Virus record (IMG/VR): IMGVR_UViG_3300035491_000042
Location: 1 to 64,000 of that record
Length of the DNA: 64,000 nucleotides
Direction: 5' to 3' (one strand)
DNA from: a virus
Lineage: Duplodnaviria; Caudoviricetes
A program made the translations under genes and the position numbers. The stretch's first letter is position 1, and the number at the start of each line of letters is the position of its first letter. The notes under the pieces were generated by a model, which was not told the origin of the DNA, searched no databases, and saw only the letters and a program-made list of their open reading frames with translations. This document shows, piece by piece, positions 4,995 to 38,679 of this stretch.

Positions 4995-5006
4995 GGTGTT
5001 GTCACC

Positions 5007-5249
5007 TTAGAATCGAGCGCGATTCAGTTCGAGTTTTGTGATTTGGTATTCAATAACATCGGTTCCTTTCGTGGCAACAATAGAAAGTGGTTGGTTGGCA
5101 CCGAGTCTGATCTTGCTACTGACATGATACCCATCATCTGCCAACATCTTCAGCTCAGTGTCTCGGGCGTTTTCGGCTTTCTTTTTTGAACTGAATGCAC
5201 CTGTGTTCATGTCGTTCATCTTCAGAATGTGAATGTATTGTGTAGCCAT
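5007..5249 (-). CDS. hypothetical protein
   Basis: ORF with RBS GAGGG, downstream of sigma70 promoter. Confidence 0.6.
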   Translation of the reverse strand: MATQYIHILKMNDMNTGAFSSKKKAENARDTELKMLADDGYHVSSKIRLGANQPLSIVATKGTDVIEYQITKLELNRARF

Positions 5250-5265
5250 AATATTGCCCTCTTTC

Positions 5266-5323
5266 AAAAAAAAATGCCCCGTTGGATACGAGGCATTGTA
5301 AGGGGTGACTGGCTCAGTGTCAA
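5266..5323 (-). promoter_or_regulatory. sigma70 promoter (TTGACA-17-TACAAT) overlapping an intrinsic terminator
   Basis: -35 at 5318-5323, -10 at 5295-5300; hairpin ATGCCTCG/CGGGGCAT followed by T-run on minus strand. Confidence 0.8.
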
Positions 5324-5955
5324 GCCATTTCTGGTGGGGTGTCTTGCTTCTTCGAGAACTTGAACATCAACCAACCACCGGCAGTGACAACCGTTGCAGC
5401 AATGACAGGCGCAACGTTTGCAGCCATCGCCGCGCCAGCGCCAGCAGGGGCGGCACCCGGTGTTACAGCAACAAGAACCATGAGGGACGCCGTTACCACG
5501 AAACTCACGACACCAGCGTACATGATCAGTGCTGACAGAGCACGTAGGACGCTCTTCAGGAACTTCGCAATACCACCTTCACGGGTGATCGGTTTAAATC
5601 CTTCCGCTTTCAGATTCTCGACGAAGTCCATGATGTCCTGTTCGTTGTCATACTTGACAACCTTACCTTTGTCTTTACCTTCGAACAGAATGGCTTGATG
5701 CTCAGAGCCGTTCTTAACGAAAATCCAGCGGGTGTTTCCTTTCTCAAGGAACATGAATCGCAGGCGGTCAGTTCCTTTCGCCAGAAGCTTCTGAAGGCTC
5801 GGCAGCAGTGCTTCGTTCAGTTGTTCTTCATGTTCTTGTAGGAAGGCCACCACCTCAGCTTCAAGCACAGCTCGTTGCTTTGGCGAGAAATTCGCCATGT
5901 CTTTGAGTTGTTCGCGAACTTCGTTCACAATACTTTCTTTCAGGATGTCACTCAT
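5320..5955 (-). CDS. late hypothetical membrane protein, possible internal virion protein
   Basis: TAAATA late motif and GGAG RBS upstream; two C-terminal hydrophobic helices. Confidence 0.6.
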   Translation of the reverse strand: MSDILKESIVNEVREQLKDMANFSPKQRAVLEAEVVAFLQEHEEQLNEALLPSLQKLLAKGTDRLRFMFLEKGNTRWIFVKNGSEHQAILFEGKDKGKVVKYDNEQDIMDFVENLKAEGFKPITREGGIAKFLKSVLRALSALIMYAGVVSFVVTASLMVLVAVTPGAAPAGAGAAMAANVAPVIAATVVTAGGWLMFKFSKKQDTPPEMA

Positions 5956-5996
5956 TTTTGTCTCCATGGATAAAGTGTATACCCATTATTTAGAGC

Positions 5997-6245
5997 CTAA
6001 CGGTGACGCTGGTAATTCTTTTTCTTCTCCCGCGCTTCCTTCAACGCGTGATAGAACTGCTTCGGCGTGATCGCAGCCAGTGCCTCTTTGCGTTGACTGG
6101 TGTAACACCAAAGGTTCTCTGTTAGCTTCTTACAGTCATTCATCTTGTCGGCGAAAGTATCACCGTAGTGTCGACCGTGGGTATCGTTCCAGACCTTAAC
6201 CATCTTCTCCAGAACGAACGTAGTGTCATGTTGTGTGAATTTCAT
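5997..6245 (-). CDS. hypothetical protein
   Basis: ORF track; operon packing. Confidence 0.6.
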   Translation of the reverse strand: MKFTQHDTTFVLEKMVKVWNDTHGRHYGDTFADKMNDCKKLTENLWCYTSQRKEALAAITPKQFYHALKEAREKKKNYQRHR

Positions 6246-6248
6246 ACA

Positions 6249-6524
6249 TTACCACCCCGCAAACACATCATAGGCTTCTTTTTTCTTGCGTGGCGCATGC
6301 ACCTTACGGAACAGCGAGAACGCCTCTTTAACAACCATACCCATGTTTCGGTTTCCAGCGTAAAAATCAACCGTCTTGGTGTGGACGTCGAAACGAACAC
6401 GCATGATAGCTACACCCTTGTTGTTCTGAACATACACAGGAAAGCCGGTTTCTTTGGCTTCGTTGATAGCGCGAATGATCTTACGCATCATAGTAGGGTG
6501 GGACAGAGAAGTCGAAGTGATCAT
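6249..6524 (-). CDS. hypothetical protein
   Basis: Start refined to MITSTS with RBS AGAGG. Confidence 0.6.
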   Translation of the reverse strand: MITSTSLSHPTMMRKIIRAINEAKETGFPVYVQNNKGVAIMRVRFDVHTKTVDFYAGNRNMGMVVKEAFSLFRKVHAPRKKKEAYDVFAGW

Positions 6525-6552
6525 GTTATAGCCTCTTTGTTTGCTAGTTGAA

Positions 6553-6594
6553 GGATCATCATAGTACACTCGTTGGAATGTACTATGATGATCC
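6553..6594. repeat. perfect 16-bp inverted repeat
   Basis: GGATCATCATAGTACA-10nt-TGTACTATGATGATCC, intergenic. Confidence 0.9.
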
Positions 6595-6630
6595 AAGGGC
6601 GGAGGGCAGTACCCTTGGATCAAACGGTTA

Positions 6631-6987
6631 TCAGGAAATTTTACAGAGAACCGCACGGCGGCCTTTTTCACCAGCGTTGCGCGGTTGTAGACCGGCACGT
6701 GTGATACCGCCGTGGGCAGTCGCTACATAACGAATTGCATTGTTGGCAGTCTGGATGTCAGTTTTGAGCATCCCAGCAACTTCGACTGCTGTCACCGTCT
6801 TCCCAGAAAGAGAACCAGTCATCCCAATCAGCTTGTTGCGAATCGCAACAGTTTCCGGTGTTGGCTGCTTGCCCATGTTCTTCGTCTGTTCTTTGAGAGC
6901 ACTGCGGAGCAGGTTTTCAATCTTGGTTACACTCACCTTGTTTTCTTTGGCGAATGTTTTGGCGATTTCTTTGATGTCAGTTTTCAT
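6631..6987 (-). CDS. putative winged-helix DNA-binding protein
   Basis: Start MKTDIK with GAGGTG RBS; TAVEVAGMLKTDIQTANNAIRY HTH-like segment; basic. Confidence 0.5.
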   Translation of the reverse strand: MKTDIKEIAKTFAKENKVSVTKIENLLRSALKEQTKNMGKQPTPETVAIRNKLIGMTGSLSGKTVTAVEVAGMLKTDIQTANNAIRYVATAHGGITRAGLQPRNAGEKGRRAVLCKIS

Positions 6988-7048
6988 ATCGTTCACCTCG
7001 TGATTTACTTTGATGCCGCGGTTGGTTACTTGGTTTACAGTTTGAATC

Positions 7049-7216
7049 TTACAGGTAGACGAAGACCTTGTCAATATGCAGAGACCGTTCTGGTGTTGGG
7101 AAGTCTTCGTCCCATACTTCACCAGCTAGACAGCCCCAGTCGAAGTAGTATGTGATCTCACCGGTACGGATCAGCGAGAACTTACAGATCGGAGCATACG
7201 AAAAATCGGTTTCCAT
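7049..7216 (-). CDS. small hypothetical protein (55 aa)
   Basis: Own translation METDFSYAPICKF...; GGGG RBS; fills the gap between neighbours. Confidence 0.5.
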   Translation of the reverse strand: METDFSYAPICKFSLIRTGEITYYFDWGCLAGEVWDEDFPTPERSLHIDKVFVYL

Positions 7217-7217
7217 G

Positions 7218-7433
7218 TTACCCCCTTACCGAATGCTTCATCATCCCCATGATGATATCGTCGACCGTGTTGATGACGTTCACCATGTCCATGATACACG
7301 CTCTTGCGACCTTGTCACCGCGTCGTTTGTGGGCTTCCATCAGCAGATCGTCGCGGTCTGCGTGGGTTGCCTCATCATCCTCGTCGACGACAAGAACACC
7401 TTGCTTCCACCCGGTAGCCATCTTACAGCTCAC
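7218..7433 (-). CDS. hypothetical protein
   Basis: ORF track; operon packing. Confidence 0.5.
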   Translation of the reverse strand: MSCKMATGWKQGVLVVDEDDEATHADRDDLLMEAHKRRGDKVARACIMDMVNVINTVDDIIMGMMKHSVRG

Positions 7434-7791
7434 CAGAGTCGATTTCTGCCAGTTCCAGCATGAAGATTCGGAAAGAACCGCCAGCAGGAGCAGGTCGACC
7501 GGGGATCAGCTTCGGGCCATTGTACTGGAAAACGATCATGTTGTCACCATTTTTCATGTCGATTTGTGCGTGATCAACCGGAATCTCGGTGTTGCACATG
7601 CGGTTAGCCAGCTCAACAGTTACCGGGTTGCCCATCGAGTACACCATCGATTCGGCGTTCTCGCGGATATACTGACCAGCCTGTTCAGGGGTCAACGGGT
7701 CGACCATGATATCGAATGCGGCTTCGGCGAACTTGGCTTCTACCATGTTCATGGAAAATGCATTGCTTACGAAAGTGCGCTTGGTAGTCAT
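7423..7791 (-). CDS. DUF1874/STIV B116/AcrIII-1-like protein (variant active site)
   Basis: NAFSMNM, SMGN (canonical SxGH), DHAQI..GD (canonical NRxxI..GD), Q..KL..G; 122 aa, typical size. Confidence 0.7.
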   Translation of the reverse strand: MTTKRTFVSNAFSMNMVEAKFAEAAFDIMVDPLTPEQAGQYIRENAESMVYSMGNPVTVELANRMCNTEIPVDHAQIDMKNGDNMIVFQYNGPKLIPGRPAPAGGSFRIFMLELAEIDSGEL

Positions 7792-7817
7792 AATAATACC
7801 TCTTTGGTTGGTTTTAC

Positions 7818-7853
7818 ATGTGGCACCATACTAGATGCCACATAGAAACTCAA
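7818..7853 (-). promoter_or_regulatory. hairpin-embedded sigma70-like promoter
   Basis: TTGAGT-17-TATGGT; -10 lies mostly in the loop of the ATGTGGCA/TGCCACAT inverted repeat. Confidence 0.6.
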
Positions 7854-8101
7854 CTAATACCTAATGCAGCCCGCTCAACGTCGGTAAGCTTGGCAATTGC
7901 TTGTTCTCTGATCTTACCTTGATGATACGAGATTGCATCATCTGCTGTGTCGTGAATGATGAACCGAACCGGTTTTACAAGGTCATGAGGACCAGCTAGC
8001 TTGCTTGCTTCAACCTCATCGGCGATATAGCAGTGGTGTCTATGAAACTCACCGCCGTCCCAACGAAGAACCTCGAATGCTTTGATGATTGTTGTTGTCA
8101 T
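7850..8101 (-). CDS. hypothetical protein
   Basis: ORF with GAGGTG RBS. Confidence 0.65.
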   Translation of the reverse strand: MTTTIIKAFEVLRWDGGEFHRHHCYIADEVEASKLAGPHDLVKPVRFIIHDTADDAISYHQGKIREQAIAKLTDVERAALGIS

Positions 8102-8110
8102 CTCGTCACC

Positions 8111-8452
8111 TCACTCTTCGCTGAAGTCTTTCAGTTGAGAATCGATCTCATCAATCAGATCGTTCATACTGGAGTCGCTGATAAGATCGTAATCGTTGCC
8201 CCAGATCAGAACATAGCAGCCTGCCTTGCGGAGGGTGTTTTTCTGATCAGACTCCGGGCGATTCCAGAGCTTCAGGACGTTGCATTCGGTTTGGCAGAGC
8301 TCAGACTTGATCAGCTCAACGTCACGAGTAGGCTCTTTGATAACCATCTCTTCGCCGTCACTGACGGTAAGGTGGATGTCGGAAGGGTGGGCGAAGATAA
8401 CCTTCAGCAGGTCGTCGACGACTTTTTGCTCGATTTCGCTTGCGTATTTCAT
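8111..8452 (-). CDS. hypothetical acidic protein
   Basis: Start refined to MKYASE after repeat promoter and RBS AAAGGGG. Confidence 0.65.
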   Translation of the reverse strand: MKYASEIEQKVVDDLLKVIFAHPSDIHLTVSDGEEMVIKEPTRDVELIKSELCQTECNVLKLWNRPESDQKNTLRKAGCYVLIWGNDYDLISDSSMNDLIDEIDSQLKDFSEE

Positions 8453-8485
8453 GATGATACCCCTTTCTTTGGTTTGGGCAGTTGG

Positions 8486-8531
8486 CTTTAGCTTGGGATC
8501 ATTTAACCATAATCCCAAGGTGAAGTCAACT
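8486..8531 (-). repeat. 46-bp promoter-hairpin repeat, copy 1
   Basis: AGTTGACTTCACCTTGGGATTATGGTTAAATGATCCCAAGCTAAAG (minus strand), identical in 4 copies. Confidence 0.95.
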
Positions 8532-8767
8532 CACTTCTCGACGTTCTTCGGGCGACGGGTCGCCCAAGTGGCGTTCTTGTGGTTGGTAGGTGCGACTTCG
8601 TACACATCACCGCAACCGACTCGGATAGTGCCATCCATGTACACGGCGGTAATGGGGGCGATTTCCTGCGGAGTGCCGACGAACTTGCCGTTACCGTCAC
8701 TGCCGTGGTTGATGACGACGTGTTCACCGACTTGCGGGAGGCGTTGTGCTGCTGATTGCTTGGTCAT
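8531..8767 (-). CDS. hypothetical protein
   Basis: Start MTKQSA with AAGGA RBS. Confidence 0.6.
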   Translation of the reverse strand: MTKQSAAQRLPQVGEHVVINHGSDGNGKFVGTPQEIAPITAVYMDGTIRVGCGDVYEVAPTNHKNATWATRRPKNVEK

Positions 8768-8795
8768 GATGGTGTTTCCTTTTTGCTTTGAGGTT

Positions 8796-8830
8796 GGGGA
8801 CATTTAACCATGTCCCCGGTCTGGTGTCAA
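8796..8830 (-). promoter_or_regulatory. variant promoter-hairpin element
   Basis: TTGACA-17-TTAAAT; same GGTTAA loop, different stem GGGGACAT/ATGTCCCC. Confidence 0.85.
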
Positions 8831-9186
8831 GCACTAATGCGCTTGTGTTTCTTTTCCCACTTACCAATGGCAATGTTGAAGTAGAACGCGGTGTTGAAGT
8901 AGTCAGTCATCGGGTCACTGTTATCATACCAGTCGCCTTCACGCTTGATGATCTCGACAACTTTTTCCAGAAACTCAATTCGCGCTGGGTGTCCTTCGTA
9001 GTTCTCACGAATGTAGTAGTGATTCACACCTTCATGAACATCGTCGTCGAAGAGGCTTGACTGCATCACAGCAACGTTCAGCGTCATATGGTGGCTGATG
9101 ATCACCGAGAACTTTACTGCCTTACCAAACTCTTCTTTCAGAGCCAGACGGATTTTTTTGGCGGTTGCGGCGTTAATGTAGGCCAT
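8827..9186 (-). CDS. LPD29-like (polyvalent-protein-associated) domain protein
   Basis: KFSV and DNSDPMTDYFNTAFY..IxIGxW motifs. Confidence 0.55.
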   Translation of the reverse strand: MAYINAATAKKIRLALKEEFGKAVKFSVIISHHMTLNVAVMQSSLFDDDVHEGVNHYYIRENYEGHPARIEFLEKVVEIIKREGDWYDNSDPMTDYFNTAFYFNIAIGKWEKKHKRISA

Positions 9187-9221
9187 TTTGATTCCCCTTT
9201 TCTTTGGTTTTGGGTAGTGAA

Positions 9222-9267
9222 CTTTAGCTTGGGATCATTTAACCATAATCCCAAGGTGAAGTCAACT
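9222..9267 (-). repeat. 46-bp promoter-hairpin repeat, copy 2
   Basis: Identical to copy 1. Confidence 0.95.
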
Positions 9268-9474
9268 GTGTTTTTCAAGTAGGCGCAAATGCTCGGCACA
9301 ATTCTGGAACTCTTCCATAGCCCAACGCATACCAGCCGGTGAATTCTCAAAACGCTCTACTTGCGCCCCATACTCAACAACAATCTGGTTTTTGGTGTGG
9401 TCGATATACGCAATCAGGAAGAAAGCGCCGTCGATTGAGTACAGTTCAGTACGTTCATTAGCCATGATACTCAC
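9262..9474 (-). CDS. hypothetical protein
   Basis: ORF; stop codon is the TGA of the repeat's TTGACT. Confidence 0.55.
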   Translation of the reverse strand: MSIMANERTELYSIDGAFFLIAYIDHTKNQIVVEYGAQVERFENSPAGMRWAMEEFQNCAEHLRLLEKHS

Positions 9475-9475
9475 C

Positions 9476-9859
9476 TCAAATAGTATACAGTTTCAGATCA
9501 TCGCCCAAGTACACTTCGACTTGTGGGTACTTTGTTCCATACCCAACCAGATCGGTTAGCTGATCACCTAAAGCACCTGCGCCTCGATCCCAGAAACCAG
9601 CACCGTGTCCGTTTCGAGTCAACCAGAAATCATGACCAGCGCAAACCCAGATAGGTGCATCGTCTTCAATAACCCGTGCCCGGTTGTACTCATCCAACAA
9701 CGGGAAGGTCTCATTGTAAAAATCAGTAGCTTGGGCTGTCAATGCCGCCTTTGCTTCGTCTGCTAGTAGGTCGACATCAGGAAAACCGTCAGTGTCATGA
9801 GCAGTCCAAACAGCAGCAACCATATAGCCTTCGATGAATTGAGATAGACGTTTGTCCAT
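9476..9859 (-). CDS. conserved phage early protein
   Basis: GHDFWLTRNGHGAGFWDRG motif seen in phage early-region proteins. Confidence 0.7.
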   Translation of the reverse strand: MDKRLSQFIEGYMVAAVWTAHDTDGFPDVDLLADEAKAALTAQATDFYNETFPLLDEYNRARVIEDDAPIWVCAGHDFWLTRNGHGAGFWDRGAGALGDQLTDLVGYGTKYPQVEVYLGDDLKLYTI

Positions 9860-9862
9860 GAT

Positions 9863-10534
9863 TCAGCCCCTTGCGATGATGTCGACTTTCTTTTTCGAGA
9901 CGCCGTGCGCCCGGAATCCGATCACAAAGTCACGGTTAGCGTGTTGGCAGAGCTGGCAGGTGCTACAGGTCACCTTGTCGCTCTTCTCGGCAGGGCAAGC
10001 CACTACCTTGACGTCATTGACCGTCTGAACGTTTGGGGCGTCAATCGGCAGGATACAGACCACTGGCAGCTTACTGGTTTGCTTCAGCAAAGTAGCAGCT
10101 TGGACCGTGTTCGCCGATACGTTGACCGTAAACCCGTTTTTGTTCGCTTTTTCAATAGATTTAAGATTCTCGACCGAAAGCGCATGATGGGTATAGGTGA
10201 ACCCCATTTTGCCTTTGTTGGCACGTGTCAAGGCGGTCAGGAATCCGTCGTCGATGGTTCCGTTTTTGTGCGGCAGGTCACCAGCAACATTGTGACGCCA
10301 AAACTGGTTACGTGGAAGAGACGCGACAGCATGGATAAACTGATCGGCCTCCAGCGCAGTAGACACCTTGCCATCTGTCAGACGACTCCAATGGATACGG
10401 GAGTGACCTAGTTCAGCGTAACACCCGTTCCCTTTGAGCGGGCAGGTTTCCGGGCAAGTATTCATACCTGACATTGTGGTAGGGATAGGACCAGTTTTTG
10501 TATTGCGGGAAATTCGAGTCAGTGAGAAGAACAT
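9863..10534 (-). CDS. Cys-rich Fe-S/radical-SAM-like phage protein
   Basis: NxKTGP, CPxxCP..CYA, RHNVAGD, YTH, CPA..CxxCxLC, FxAHG; start refined to MFFSL. Confidence 0.65.
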   Translation of the reverse strand: MFFSLTRISRNTKTGPIPTTMSGMNTCPETCPLKGNGCYAELGHSRIHWSRLTDGKVSTALEADQFIHAVASLPRNQFWRHNVAGDLPHKNGTIDDGFLTALTRANKGKMGFTYTHHALSVENLKSIEKANKNGFTVNVSANTVQAATLLKQTSKLPVVCILPIDAPNVQTVNDVKVVACPAEKSDKVTCSTCQLCQHANRDFVIGFRAHGVSKKKVDIIARG

Positions 10535-10567
10535 AATAGTACCCCTTTTCTTTGATTGGGTAGTGAA

Positions 10568-10613
10568 CTTTAGCTTGGGATCATTTAACCATAATCCCAA
10601 GGTGAAGTCAACT
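10568..10613 (-). repeat. 46-bp promoter-hairpin repeat, copy 3
   Basis: Identical to copy 1. Confidence 0.95.
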
Positions 10614-10614
10614 A

Positions 10615-10842
10615 TCAGAATGACGCTACCAGTCTCGCAATGTCTTCGGCAGTCATTTTCTCGACTTCAAAGAAGTTGAGATCGGAGCCTACCCCGTCGA
10701 CGTTAGCATGAGCGGATTCAGTGTTTTTGTCGATGCAGACGAACGCCTCAAAGTCCCCAGCGTCACGAACTTGCAGAGACCGAACGCCAGCGCAATATTC
10801 CTCGGTCACAGCGTAGAAAACCCCGTCAATCTGTACTTTCAT
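10615..10842 (-). CDS. hypothetical acidic protein
   Basis: Single-gene cassette between repeat copies 4 and 3. Confidence 0.65.
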   Translation of the reverse strand: MKVQIDGVFYAVTEEYCAGVRSLQVRDAGDFEAFVCIDKNTESAHANVDGVGSDLNFFEVEKMTAEDIARLVASF

Positions 10843-10874
10843 GGTAATACCCCTTTCTTTGGTTGGGCAGTGAA

Positions 10875-10920
10875 CTTTAGCTTGGGATCATTTAACCATA
10901 ATCCCAAGGTGAAGTCAACT
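10875..10920 (-). repeat. 46-bp promoter-hairpin repeat, copy 4
   Basis: Identical to copy 1. Confidence 0.95.
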
Positions 10921-11287
10921 AGACGTTCATGTAGTTGCGAATCTTGACACGGTACTCCCGTGGCTTGCCCGGTACTGGCGTAACGGTTGCATACGTCTGG
11001 GTATGCCCACAACAATCGTGCTCGCAGCAGCAACCGTAGTCCAGTGAGTCTTCAATGGCACGGGCTACCCAGTGACGGATGCCCTTACCGTGACGTGCTT
11101 CGATTGCCCGTTTTTGGGCACCAGACAACGTGACAATAGTATGCTGGGTGTACCCAGTCCCATCATTGTCATACTCGACCACTTTTGGCTTGAGCATCTT
11201 ACCGACTGCGACGAACACATGATCATTCAGATGATCATAGCCAATACGATACCCATGTGTGACGCGTTTGTAAATATTGATTTTCAT
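10919..11287 (-). CDS. hypothetical protein with Cys cluster
   Basis: CCCEHDCCGH; AAGGG RBS. Confidence 0.65.
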   Translation of the reverse strand: MKINIYKRVTHGYRIGYDHLNDHVFVAVGKMLKPKVVEYDNDGTGYTQHTIVTLSGAQKRAIEARHGKGIRHWVARAIEDSLDYGCCCEHDCCGHTQTYATVTPVPGKPREYRVKIRNYMNV

Positions 11288-11441: not shown

Positions 11442-11456
11442 TTGACGTTCTCCGTT

Positions 11457-11812
11457 CTGGTTTATTTTGTCGGACGGACTCAACAAAGTCAAGTCCGTCC
11501 TGCAAAATAAACTAGACGTTTTAGCTTTCATAAGCACAACCGCGCAGGTCATTTTTAAGGACGCGACGACGCCCGACGTTATTATTTCAGTGCCTGTCAC
11601 CGGCACGATTCGAGTAGGCGCAGTAGTACATATTTCCGCTAGTATGTTCCCCGTCGGGAGCGATACCTTTACCGAGGCAATCTTTATGACGTTCAAAACT
11701 TTGACATGAATCGTCTAGACATACCTTTCCCAAGGCGTGGCACACATACAAGCCACATTTTACCTTATCCACATTTTTAAAGAGCGTACCGAGCGGCGAC
11801 TTGTCCGTCGGT
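11457..11812 (-). ncRNA. candidate structured 5' leader/ncRNA with boxA
   Basis: boxA-like CGCTCTTTAAAAAT at 11773-11786; several hairpins incl. long stem 11459-11511; no RBS-supported ORF. Confidence 0.45.
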
Positions 11813-20866: not shown

Positions 20867-22657
20867 TTACAGTGGATATTCGTACTTTATCAAACCGCAA
20901 TCATAGATCGGGTATATCCCGTGTTCCAACATATTGGTCATTTCACTCTTAGTCGGATCGAAGTGTTCGAGTATCGTTTCAAGATTCTTCCTACGGAAGT
21001 TTTGCTTACGAACGCGTTTGTCATCAATCACGTACTGGTAATCCGGTTTGATATGCTTAGCCTCCACCCAACCAGACTTACGATACACATCACCCTCGCT
21101 GTAGCGTTTATCCGCGAACGATACAAGATTTGCACATCCAAGGTCTCTCAGGAACGGGATAGCGTGTTTCAAAAGACGCGTAAAGCCTCCTACAACGCGA
21201 CATGAGGTGGCGTATCTCGATAGCTCATACTCTGTGTCGGTTCTCTTCTTGAAGCTCATCATAGCTCGTATCTCACCAGCATAATACAGACACAGTGTCA
21301 GGCTTTGACCGCCATTTCCTTGAATGTGGTTCTTGTCGTAGAACGCTTTGATGGTTTCTTTCTCATCCTTGGTGATATTGATGAGTGTGCATTTTCTGGC
21401 GAATACGGTCTCTCTGTCGTCAACACCAAGGATCGATTTCAGTTTTGCCTTCACCTGTTCCTGTCGATGCTCCCATTCGTCCTCAAAGATATGAATCAGG
21501 CGCACTCCGACCTCCTTGGCGGCGTTGCTCTTCTCAAGATGGAAGTTGTTCTCCTTATACTTCTTTGAGTGCCAGTACAACCCGTTATACTCGATACCTA
21601 TCATTTTCGATGGGATAAGAATGTCAATCTCTCGGTTGTTTGGTAATGTGGTTCGATCCCCAGAGATCGCGTCATCAAAACCAAGGCTCTGAATGAACGC
21701 GAGTACTTGTTTTTCTGCGAACGACTTGTTCGTTGGTTCTACCTCAATGTTGAACTTTCGTAGCCGGTCGTAGATCACCCCATCACCGACGCCCAATAGG
21801 TTTCCTAAGCGAACACCACCAAGGAGGCGGTAATTCTCTTCCAGCCAGACTGGGTTGTCGAGAAGATCGAGATTTTCTTTTGAAATGTGTCGTTGCGAGT
21901 GATGAGGGACGCCGTATGTGTTTAAATTCTTCATCCGTATACGCTCTTTAAAGACGTCCGAGCAGCGATAGAACTCAGAGCCATAACGCTCCAAATTCGT
22001 CTTCTTGACCTTCCGAAAAACGACATCGTTCTGTATAGGGTTCTCTACCCCATAACGTTCAATGTTCGTGTTCTTAGCTTTCTCTTTCACATCATCGGAC
22101 TGCATTGGGTTCTCTACCCCATAACGCTCCAAATTCGTCTGTGTGATCTTTTTCTTAATATCTCCAGACGCAAACACATTATCAACACCATATGTTTTCC
22201 TAATAGATGCCTTATGCTTCCGACGCCCACTTTCTGTTTTCATTGGGTGGTCTGCGCCGTAACGAGAATTATTGGTTTTCTTGCGACGTTCCTTTACGTC
22301 GTCTCTCTGGGTGTTATATTCAACCCCATAAAGCTCAAGATTATTTTCCTTCTCCTTTTCGACAACAAATACACCGTTACATTTTCGAGAACAAGTCTTC
22401 GGAAATTCAGGGCCATGCGCTGTATGTATTTTATTCCCACACACAGGACACAGTGGTGGTTCTGTTATACCGTGTTTCAGTGCGAAGAGATACACAGAAA
22501 ACTCTTTTCGCCCGTCCATCGAATCGATGAAAGAAAACATACGTTTCACCGATTCTTTGAATTCTCGGTGTTCTTTCTTCTTGACCCATGCGGTGCTTGT
22601 ACCATCACCCATTGCGGTACGATAGTACTCTTGTAGTTGCTCGATACCCATATTCAT
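20867..22657 (-). mobile_element. Hef-like homing endonuclease
   Basis: Zn finger, YGVENPxQ repeats, EIDI..IGIEYNGLYWH PD-(D/E)xK nuclease, C-terminal GNAT-like domain. Confidence 0.75.
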
Positions 22658-36993: not shown

Positions 36994-37023
36994 AAAAAAA
37001 ACCCCTCATTGAGGGGTTTTTTT
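36994..37023. terminator. bidirectional intrinsic terminator
   Basis: A-run CCCCTCA/TGAGGGG T-run between convergent genes. Confidence 0.85.
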
Positions 37024-38679
37024 CAATTCGAAGCATAGTGAACCAGCGTCATAAACTCGCAACCAACCAGCTTCTCTCATGTTTTCGTGCTCTGTCTTCT
37101 TAACGTCGAATTGATCCAGAACTTTAGATAACTTGTGCTTCATGCACTGATGCCTTGAAAGGGTATATGTTTTACGTGTGTTGTAGTACCGGTAGTTTGG
37201 TTTTGTGATGTGCGACAGCTCGAACCCACTTTTCATGTACAAATCACCATGGCTGTAGTCGAGCGAAGCGAACGTCAAAATTCTTTTGATATTTTTCCCT
37301 CGCATAAAATGACTCAGTAGTTTAGTGAAACCTCCAACAACAGCCACTGACGTTGCATATCGAACTAGGTCATACTCTCCATCATCTTTTAGGCGTTTGA
37401 AGCTCATACATGCAACCAGTCGGTCTCCCGATACCAAACCAATAGTACTTACACCATGCACCGACCCTTGGATGTGGTTTTCGTCATAAAACGCTTTCGC
37501 GATGTTCTGGTTAACATCAACCACCCGTGTTTTCCTTGCAAATACTCGTTCTGATAAAACACCGATTGATCTAAGAATCCTCTTCTTTAATATTTTTTGC
37601 TTTCTTTCATCCTCCCAGTCATCCTCCCAAATATGAAAAAGATTGACCCCCTTCTTCATACACTCTGTCGATTTCTTTTGATGATAGTCCGATGGTTTGA
37701 ATTTCTCCGAATGCCAAAACAGTCCGTTATATTCGATTGCGAGTTTTTTGGATGGGATGTACAAATCGAGCTCCCTTCCATCAAGAACTGTGCGATCCGA
37801 TCTGATGATCTCATCATGTGGTATGATGGTGCTAATAAAATCATAGAGAACGTCTTCCCCGTGCGAGTGATTAGTGTCGTTTTGAACGCCAAGCTCTGCC
37901 ATTCTAGCTACCGTTCTACTGACCGAATAATCAAGAACCCTAGCAATCTCTTTTGTGTGTTTATATTCATTGACAACTTCTATAAACTTTGCGTCGTCAT
38001 TGAAAATGTCGTGATGTTTTTTATACGCTTTAGTTGTGTGATCAACACCATAACGCTCTGAAACAGTTTTTAGGTATGACAGTCTGGCAGCATGCTTGAA
38101 TGGTTTATGGTGCATTGGGTGTTCAACACCATACTTTTTCAACAACGTTTCCTTCTTAGTCTTACGACCTTGTTCGGTGTTTAAGTACATAACCCCACCA
38201 TACCGACTGGTGTTTGTATCAGCGACCTTCTTCTTGATACTATCTACCATCATTGGGTTTTCAACACCATACTTCTCAAGCATAGTATTTTTGAACTTCT
38301 CAATACCATCCGGTGTTCTCATATTGTGATCACCATACCTAGCAGTCATAGTATTTGTTCTCTTTTTTACTGTTGTTTCTGACTTCCTCGCGCATTCACG
38401 AGAACAATATGTGGAGAAGATATAGGAGTCGTAGTGACACTCACCGGCTCGTGAGTTCTGGCGAATAGTGACGTGACGTCCACACTCACATAGTGGTACG
38501 GATGTGATGTTCTTCATGATGCAATATAGCCGCATTGAGAACCGCTCCTTACCGCCCATATGTTTTGTTAAAAACTCCGTCTCGTTGATTATCAGCTCTT
38601 TCAGTTCTTTCAGCTCTTTTGACCTCCCAAATTTCACGGCATCTGGAAATCCAAGCTCTGTTATGATGTCAACAATCAT
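37006..38679 (-). mobile_element. Hef-like homing endonuclease (paralog of 20867-22657)
   Basis: YGVENPM repeats, ELDLY..AIEYNGLFWH, GNAT-like C-terminus; inserted antisense between sheath and tube. Confidence 0.75.

Follow-up and report, generated by a model that had tools for sequence, protein, structure and literature searches.

A DUF1874-fold phage protein from a conserved branch without the AcrIII-1 catalytic histidine: a candidate cyclic-oligoadenylate sponge

The window analysed here (64,000 nucleotides (nt); bases 1-64000 of the 152,211-bp virus contig IMGVR_UViG_3300035491_000042 of IMG/VR, from a T4-like environmental phage) encodes on its minus strand a 122-amino-acid (aa) protein of the DUF1874 fold family, to which the ring nuclease AcrIII-1 belongs. 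This protein, hereafter the target, falls in a phage branch of the AcrIII-1/Crn2 family that appears to have kept the nucleotide-binding basket and dismantled the canonical cleavage machinery. The best reading of its residue pattern, held tentatively and at slightly less than an even chance, is that the target is a non-cleaving binder of cyclic oligoadenylates, that is, a sponge. The gene, its presumed ribosome-binding site and an open reading frame (ORF) that overlaps it are:

7423..7791, minus strand: target ORF, 122 aa, ATG start; DUF1874/AcrIII-1-fold protein of the His-less branch
7799..7805, minus strand: Shine-Dalgarno-like AAAGAGG, 7 nt 5′ of the target ATG
7249..7845, plus strand: 198-aa ORF overlapping the target, from the ORF list

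The target is a confirmed member of the alpha/beta DUF1874 fold family. The Pfam family PF08960 (STIV_B116-like, the former DUF1874) matches it with 29.6 bits (E 7.8e-7), above the curated cut-off of 26 and spanning target residues 13-89 and positions 8-78 of the 101-position profile, and a genome-wide search recovers the match at 29.1 bits. The only other Pfam entry at E ≤10 is DUF4318, sub-threshold at 12.4 bits. The family phrog_5063 matches at E 3.1e-8. Searched with phmmer, the PDB yields STIV B116 (2j85_A, 1.7e-5), SIRV1 gp29 (2x4i_A, 2.3e-4) and 6scf_A (9.1e-4), the last being the gp29 chain of a complex with cyclic tetra-adenylate (cA4) that carries Ala at the His position. An AlphaFold2 model built with 83 aligned relatives as input has a mean predicted local distance difference test score (pLDDT) of 95.3 and a predicted template modelling score (pTM) of 0.87. 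Compared with the PDB by Foldseek, this model finds only AcrIII-1 entries at ranks 1-11 (6scf, 2x4i, 2j85 and 2j6b; E 2.2e-8 to 1.5e-6, probability 1.00, template modelling scores 0.64-0.83), followed by the Crn2 domain of Csx1-Crn2 (8y7f, E 2.1e-5); matches ranked below the Csx1-Crn2 entries have E >0.1. Sequence identity to the solved family members is about 17-20% in the Foldseek alignments.

An earlier note, made from the DNA alone, had placed an AcrIII-1-like homologue with substituted catalytic residues at 7423-7791. The ORF is there, on the minus strand with an ATG start and 122 aa, and the homology is supported by sequence, fold and a predicted dimer; the Foldseek comparison with AcrIII-1 structures that the note had proposed returned a clear match (E 2.2e-8) rather than none. 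The motif pairs that it had aligned by eye (NAFSMNM/NAFSINM, SMGN/SIGH and DHAQI/NRVEI) are all reproduced in HMMER alignments to 2x4i_A, 6scf_A and 2j85_A, and for its fourth pair, KL..G with RL..G, the family alignment sets GP-KL-IPG on the consensus GPRLPEG.

In the BFVD library of viral structures, the first matches to the target model are proteins of Thermoanaerobacterium phage THSA-485A, Stygiolobus rod-shaped virus and STIV. Jumbo Erwinia phage proteins of 133-147 aa (vB_EamM_Kwan and phiEaH2) also match weakly in BFVD (E 1e-4 to 9e-3, probability 1.00, 9-12% identity) and may be very distant fold relatives. Against a phage collection that may omit the window's own record, megablast of window positions 6000-10000 gave no match and tblastn of the target protein matched only two STIV2 records. 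No RNA data set carrying the target gene was listed.

The residues that matter for cleavage in this family have been named for AcrIII-1 and for the fused cellular enzyme Csx1-Crn2. According to the AcrIII-1 preprint, His47 is ‘absolutely conserved’ and acts as the general acid, mutating it to Ala (H47A) brings a loss of over 2500-fold, the closed dimer is locked by R85, and the side chains in contact with cA4 are R66, N8, Q81, S11, T50, S49 and N13 (10.1101/778746). In Csx1-Crn2 the mutants N451A, H495A, R514A and E536A are reported to have markedly reduced cleavage, and that paper itself equates H495 and E536 with H47 and E88 (PMC11317161); N451 and R514 were equated with gp29 N8 and R66 by alignment in this analysis. 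We carried gp29 numbering to the target through the HMMER alignment, and R85 and the Glu of the RLPEG loop through the family alignment:

gp29 N8, target N10: N-terminal loop Asn at the scissile phosphate, kept
gp29 S11, target S13: cA4 side-chain contact, kept
gp29 N13, target N15: cA4 side-chain contact, kept
gp29 H47, target N55: general-acid His, lost; codon AAC, 7627..7629, minus strand
gp29 S49, target V57: cA4 side-chain contact, changed
gp29 T50, target T58: cA4 side-chain contact, kept
gp29 R66 (R514 in Csx1-Crn2), target H74, with Asp73 just before it: scissile-phosphate Arg, lost; codon CAC, 7570..7572, minus strand
gp29 Q81, target Q89: cA4 side-chain contact, kept
gp29 R85 (R533), target K94: lid Arg that locks the closed dimer
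gp29 E88 (E536), target P97: Glu of the mobile RLPEG loop that supports the His, lost

Thus the target retains one of the four residues that mutagenesis shows to be needed for cleavage (gp29 N8, H47, R66 and E88), the Asn. The substitutions proposed in the earlier note are borne out: the general-acid His is Asn (N55) in the alignments to PDB entries and to the family, and the conserved Arg residues are His74 at the R66 position and Lys94 at the R85 position. The loss of the RLPEG-loop Glu, which is Pro97 here, goes beyond that list. The Asn55 codon is real and sequencing error is excluded, because the same Asn is present in a 72%-identical homologue (P0002, on contig L020) and the contigs spanning this codon in four other public runs have no listed difference there. 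With the general-acid His replaced by Asn, the scissile-phosphate Arg by His and the loop Glu by Pro, the target resembles AcrIII-1 (SIRV1 gp29, 2x4i/6scf; STIV B116, 2j85) in Pfam family, fold, size and a predicted second-strand homodimer, and in the retained SNAFSxNM N-terminal loop, T58, Q89 and GP[RK]L lid motif, but differs from it in the active site. Because it lacks three features that define this site, the target is better not classed with the AcrIII-1/Crn2 ring nucleases. Catalysis by the canonical mechanism is very unlikely in it.

As judged from the aligned relatives, these substitutions mark a conserved branch, not one odd sequence. Searched exhaustively with HMMER, 1.84 billion representatives yielded 91 proteins at E ≤1e-3; these and P0002, minus nine proteins of at least 200 aa, make an alignment of 83 sequences in which the His column reads H70 N10 A1 G1 T1, and the non-His rows are the closest relatives of the target. 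A profile of 12 of these sequences searched against a set of 5.8 billion proteins found 106 at E ≤1e-5; 27 of them score 118-163 bits, after which the score falls sharply to 87 bits. Residues were counted in those 176 of the 187 stored proteins that are 90-150 aa long: the His is present in 145 and absent from 31. Twenty-nine of the 31, the target among them, form one split of the 176-row tree (Shimodaira-Hasegawa-like approximate likelihood ratio test, SH-aLRT, 99), and in a careful 37-row tree the same 29 rows separate from eight canonical rows with 100/100 support. The His/non-His label needs three changes on the 176-row tree, compared with a mean of 28.8 for shuffled labels, and none of 500 shuffles was as low. 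The remaining two non-His proteins, P0089 (Thr) and P0141 (Asp), are isolated. The canonical proteins (n=145) and the branch (n=29) compare as follows:

His column: canonical H 145/145; branch N22 G4 A2 T1
Gly preceding the His: canonical 145/145; branch S18 G5 K3 N2
R66 column: canonical R 144/145; branch R11 K5 H4 L3 and others
E88 column: canonical E 137/145; branch E7 K5 P3 D3 and others
Ser at position 51: canonical S 131/145; branch V11 F8 I4 E4
Lid column (R85/K94): canonical R 145/145; branch R24 K5
N10 (gp29 N8): canonical 143/145; branch 29/29
N15: canonical 86/145; branch 29/29
T58: branch 26/29

The branch thus differs from AcrIII-1 also in that neither the Gly before the His nor the Ser at position 51 is conserved. 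Invariant in all 29 members are N10, F12, S13, N15, M16, D83 and Q89, together with columns that are the branch's own (L61, the Y90-N91-G92 triplet and G105); F26 and D27 are found in 24 and 26 of the 29. The clusters share only about 30-45% identity, yet 12 columns are invariant. Four of these 12 fall among eight named cA4 side-chain contacts (hypergeometric p = 0.003), a test that is only indicative because some of the columns also lie in the predicted dimer interface. One sub-branch of six clusters keeps N65, R66 and R85, and E88 in four of the six, so that the His is the loss common to all six; the other sub-branches are further diverged. Branch proteins are acidic, with a median isoelectric point of 4.5. 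A search of 222-2000-aa proteins for fusions of the branch came up empty, which is weak evidence, and none of the 10 branch clusters looked up has an informative name.

The branch is also rare, at 29 clusters. A first scan of IMG/VR gave 12 loci (11 His, one Asn) and a second gave 41, of which two had been classed earlier and 39 were newly classed as 38 His and one Asn, the latter on a contig already met in the first scan; six loci in GTDB genomes and 55 in JGI metagenomes add 60 His and one Asn (L020). Only L020 of these 112 classified loci, which represent fewer distinct contigs since the two IMG/VR scans overlap, belongs to the branch. Gene context among the branch relatives was seen for L020 only; the remaining 27 clusters come mostly from Logan assemblies.

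Other departures from the canonical His stand apart from the branch. The isolated Asn of IMG/VR is at locus L004/L099 (a 68,126-bp contig; match at 6001-6282 of L004), in a protein that is otherwise canonical, keeps the Asn-Arg pair and has none of the 29-cluster branch motifs; it is probably an independent loss of the His. Separately, P0030, P0037 and P0045 are tandem two-domain DUF1874 proteins, or single-chain pseudo-dimers, in which one repeat has Gly-His and the other Gly-Leu or Gly-Phe, so that one of the two active sites appears, from these residues, to be dead.

The pattern of substitution indicates that the target gene is under purifying selection and is maintained, not decaying. On L020, a 3.1-kb Tara Oceans contig, P0002 stands in a gene order that matches the window's, and its gene compared with that of the target gives a non-synonymous rate (dN) of 0.249 and a synonymous rate (dS) of 1.17; the resulting dN/dS of about 0.2 is only rough because dS is near saturation. 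The four further public runs come from three studies and are recorded as wastewater, seawater and aquatic metagenomes, and across their contigs the target gene shows five single-base differences, of which four are synonymous and one is E44D. Two of the four carry an in-frame 6-nt insertion near the target N-terminus. No change is listed at the His74 codon.

The target is also predicted to form a homodimer. Two copies co-folded gave an interface score (interaction prediction score from aligned errors, ipSAE) of 0.67 (runs of 0.64, 0.67 and 0.71) compared with 0.00 for the best control; of 30 proteins solved as same-chain pairs, 20 attain the mark set for this score, as does one of 23 solved as single chains. 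The runs have at least 96% of contacts in common and a partner pLDDT of at least 83. The predicted interface consists of strand 22-32 packed on itself, the N-terminal loop 11-15, and residues 87, 89, 91, 108 and 110, in agreement with Csx1-Crn2, in which the second beta-strands are described as pairing into a basket (PMC11317161). Because such complexes have already been solved, this result speaks for likeness and is not independent proof.

How might such a protein act? The ligand of the homodimer would be cA4 or a closely related cyclic oligoadenylate that the host produces through a type III CRISPR system or one resembling the cyclic-oligonucleotide-based antiphage signalling systems (CBASS); the bound signal would be sequestered and presumably left uncut; and as a stoichiometric sponge the protein would keep the signal from host effectors, giving it an anti-defence role. 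This reading is the best supported because conservation in the branch is highest among the pocket residues, and because laboratory variants of the fold without the His hold cA4 tightly. The engineered traps H47A of gp29 (6scf) and H495A of Csx1-Crn2 (8y7g) bind cA4 tightly enough to crystallise, and for Csx1-Crn2 H495A without its CARF domain the reported dissociation constant for cA4 is about 62 nM (PMC11317161). The natural branch would seem to resemble this trapped state, most clearly in the sub-branch that shares the loss of the His only; the traps, made in the laboratory by point mutation, retain R66 and E88, both of which are changed in the target. No side-chain chemistry seems to be needed at position 55, because Asn, Gly, Ala and Thr are all tolerated there. 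We also count in favour of a sponge the run of genes with hairpin elements in which the target lies and a Tad2-like gene elsewhere in the genome (both below), as well as the acidity of the branch proteins. The earlier note's inference of a sponge or an enzyme of altered specificity is plausible in that it fits both the residue pattern and the published mutant data.

Several points weigh against a sponge. The scissile-phosphate Arg, which is not conserved in the branch, also adds affinity: Csx1-Crn2 S452Y/R514A is reported to bind cA4 at about 334 nM (PMC11317161), against about 62 nM for the H495A variant. Without a conserved R66, branch proteins may bind cA4 less tightly or have another ligand. 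At the lid position Lys replaces Arg in the target and in five of the 29 branch members. The native role is disputed even for canonical members: SIRV2 gp37 is reported to give no anti-CRISPR effect in native infection and to bind a host lysine methyltransferase (10.1101/2023.01.10.523387). A sponge would also require a host that makes cA4 or another cyclic oligonucleotide, and a stoichiometric one depends on the timing and level of its expression.

The main rival, which we consider unlikely, is a phosphodiesterase with a rewired active site, in which His74 following Asp73 serves as a new general acid, or a protein turned to another substrate or ligand (cyclic tri-adenylate, cA3; cyclic hexa-adenylate, cA6; a mixed-linkage or other nucleotide signal). 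The R66/R514 position now occupied by His74 sits at the scissile phosphate, and the Asp-His pair at 73-74 recurs in P0001, P0002, P0103 and P0106, on at least two lineages; the separate place of P0106 in the tree implies two or more origins of the pair. The branch-own invariants, with F26 and D27, likewise point to a new constraint. Other ring nucleases (Crn1) work slowly without a His, which we count on the same side. Yet only these four of the 29 clusters have His at 74, and with the column at R11 K5 H4 L3 and others, His74 cannot be a catalytic residue of the whole branch. Nor is there a branch-invariant residue of the typical general acid or base kind except Tyr90, which is present in 91 of the 145 canonical proteins too, and position 55 tolerates Gly, Ala and Thr. 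A role apart from nucleotide signals, with the fold serving as a protein- or nucleic-acid-binding module such as an inhibitor of a host protein, is again improbable. It would be in keeping with the relaxed active-site columns of the branch, with the position of the newly conserved F26, D27 and N91 in or beside the predicted dimer interface, and with the second, protein-binding role described for canonical SIRV2 gp37, whose general anti-CRISPR role is doubted; the methyltransferase partner, however, is given in the same preprint as confined to crenarchaea (10.1101/2023.01.10.523387). Moreover, the invariant residues line the cA4 pocket (N10, S13, N15 and Q89) and no new surface, and the low isoelectric point speaks against general DNA binding.

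We regard an ordinary AcrIII-1 ring nuclease that cuts cA4 canonically as highly improbable. Family membership, fold and the predicted dimer are what such an enzyme would have, but three of the four mutagenesis-proven residues are replaced in the target, and in the AcrIII-1 preprint the H47A change by itself has a cost of more than 2500-fold (10.1101/778746). The idea of a decaying, functionless remnant takes its appeal from the lost catalytic residues and is already disfavoured, to the point where we give it next to no weight: the rate ratio of about 0.2 against the 72%-identical homologue, with conserved neighbours, the four synonymous changes and one conservative change in the four further runs, and the 12 columns invariant over 29 divergent clusters all oppose decay, as do an intact frame, a Shine-Dalgarno-like sequence and a high-confidence fold.

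Among known systems, Crn2 and Csx1-Crn2 share the domain of the target; they are cellular, CRISPR-linked or fused, and have an intact active site, whereas the target stands alone in a phage. In its proposed action the target would be like the phage sponges Tad1, Tad2, Acb2 and Acb4 (the last reported to be PF13876), with a nucleotide signal sequestered by a protein that is small, acidic and oligomeric. These sponges have no sequence relation to the target in the Pfam scan, and none derives from the ring nuclease fold. Among the papers listed by full-text literature searches we found no description of a His-less DUF1874 branch or of a DUF1874-derived (cA4) sponge; figures and supplements lay outside those searches, and an earlier mention is possible.

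If the target binds without cutting, the branch would be a candidate sponge of the cA4 class, and the two strategies that viruses are known to use against nucleotide signalling, degrading and sequestering, would be linked by a direct evolutionary path. It is tempting to go further, and we do so with more reserve than for the target itself: the 29-cluster branch may be the first case in nature of a ring nuclease turned sponge, where the loss of H47, R66 and E88 left sequestration only, possibly of a cyclic oligoadenylate that the parent cannot cut; or, in the target's sub-branch, the recurrent Asp-His pair could mark a rebuilt active site. If another residue cuts, or another ligand is bound, the chemistry of the family would be widened. 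AcrIII-1 is the founding viral ring nuclease, and a conserved, selected branch without its His and two further cleavage residues would amount to a second life of the fold. Homology-based annotation would label the branch ‘AcrIII-1 ring nuclease’; the residue pattern says that the label should not transfer.

The target lies in a minus-strand run of small genes of unassigned function, each with a hairpin element in front. The elements and ORFs around it are:

7818..7843, minus strand: hairpin or palindrome upstream of the target, with 8-bp arms at 7818-7825 and 7836-7843 and a 10-nt loop
7848..7853, minus strand: −35-like TTGAGT, overlapping the stop codon of the upstream ORF
7825-7830, minus strand: −10-like TATGGT, 17 nt past TTGAGT, inside the hairpin loop
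7218..7421, minus strand: 67-aa acidic ORF with its ATG 1 nt past the target stop (TAAGATG), directly downstream in L020 also
7850-8101, minus strand: 83-aa ORF between the target and the MKYAS... gene, an insertion/deletion polymorphism
8827-9186, minus strand: 119-aa protein with an LPD29 domain (PF18847, 27.8 bits against a cut-off of 27) and a match to phrog_10415 (1.7e-19)

Folded as RNA, the target hairpin has 11 pairs and −22.9 kcal/mol (z-score −4.38), and none of 200 shuffles was as good. It is kept in L020, where the arms carry a compensatory double change, one in each arm, which supports a functional palindrome or stem. Of the ‘hairpin early promoter’ proposed in the earlier note, the 8-bp inverted repeat stands (z-score −4.4, kept in L020) and the promoter part fares less well: the hexamers are weak, at eight of 12 consensus matches, the −10-like hexamer is TGCGGT in L020 and so is not kept, and a sigma-70 consensus scan of 5000-11000, which needs nine of 12 matches, did not list the element. 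Five elements on the minus strand between 7.8 and 10.9 kb, each 5′ of a gene, share one layout, in which TTGA[CG]T is followed after four bases by an 8-bp arm, a loop of 10-12 nt and the other arm. Four of them are copies of an 82-nt repeat, and the one directly ahead of the target is more divergent.

The four copies of the 82-nt repeat (8450-8531, 9186-9267, 10532-10613 and 10839-10920, minus strand) stand ahead of consecutive small genes, each with TTGACT, 17 nt, TTAAAT and then a strong ribosome-binding site. In these copies the 8-bp inverted repeat CTTGGGAT/ATCCCAAG encloses the second hexamer, and the RNA fold of one copy has a z-score of −3.67; the repeat is probably a shared regulatory cassette of the small-gene cluster. 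The longest local hairpin of the first 16 kb is a 25-nt inverted repeat at 11456-11516 (arms 11456-11480 and 11492-11516, 11-nt spacer, 88% complementary).

The 67-aa ORF at 7218..7421 has no Pfam or PHROG match. The 83-aa ORF at 7850-8101, which has a weak match to phrog_5370 (1.1e-4) and none in Pfam, is present in the window and in run X3 and absent from L020; in runs X4, X5 and X6, also without it, position 7854 is joined to 8113 with nine other letters between. The gene of the 119-aa LPD29 protein is two genes upstream of the target's neighbourhood.

The large ORFs of the phage genome match PHROGs for baseplate wedge, tail, portal, primase and SbcC-like proteins. The portal shares 57% identity with two Alishewanella myophages and about 30% with many T4-like phages, so that the ‘gammaproteobacterial-type phage’ of the earlier note is plausible and no more, with those two Alishewanella portal matches as its basis. 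A T5-like pre-early (first-step-transfer) region marked by a long terminal repeat was considered and rejected, as the terminal repeat of the contig is only 127 bp. Its simplest reading is an assembly overlap, and the target's position in the record is for that reason uninformative. The target is the only PF08960 gene of the genome, which leaves it without an active paralogue as partner. Outside the window the genome carries a gene from one of the known sponge families for nucleotide signals:

G000:C1:78356-78610 (L114 1501-1797), plus strand: Tad2-like gene, 98-aa ORF, PF11195, 88.1 bits, E 6.6e-26

Two paralogous ORFs on the minus strand, at 20867-22657 (596 aa) and 37006-38679 (557 aa), match phrog_3339/phrog_559, annotated as homing or HNH endonuclease, at E 1e-116 to 1e-121.

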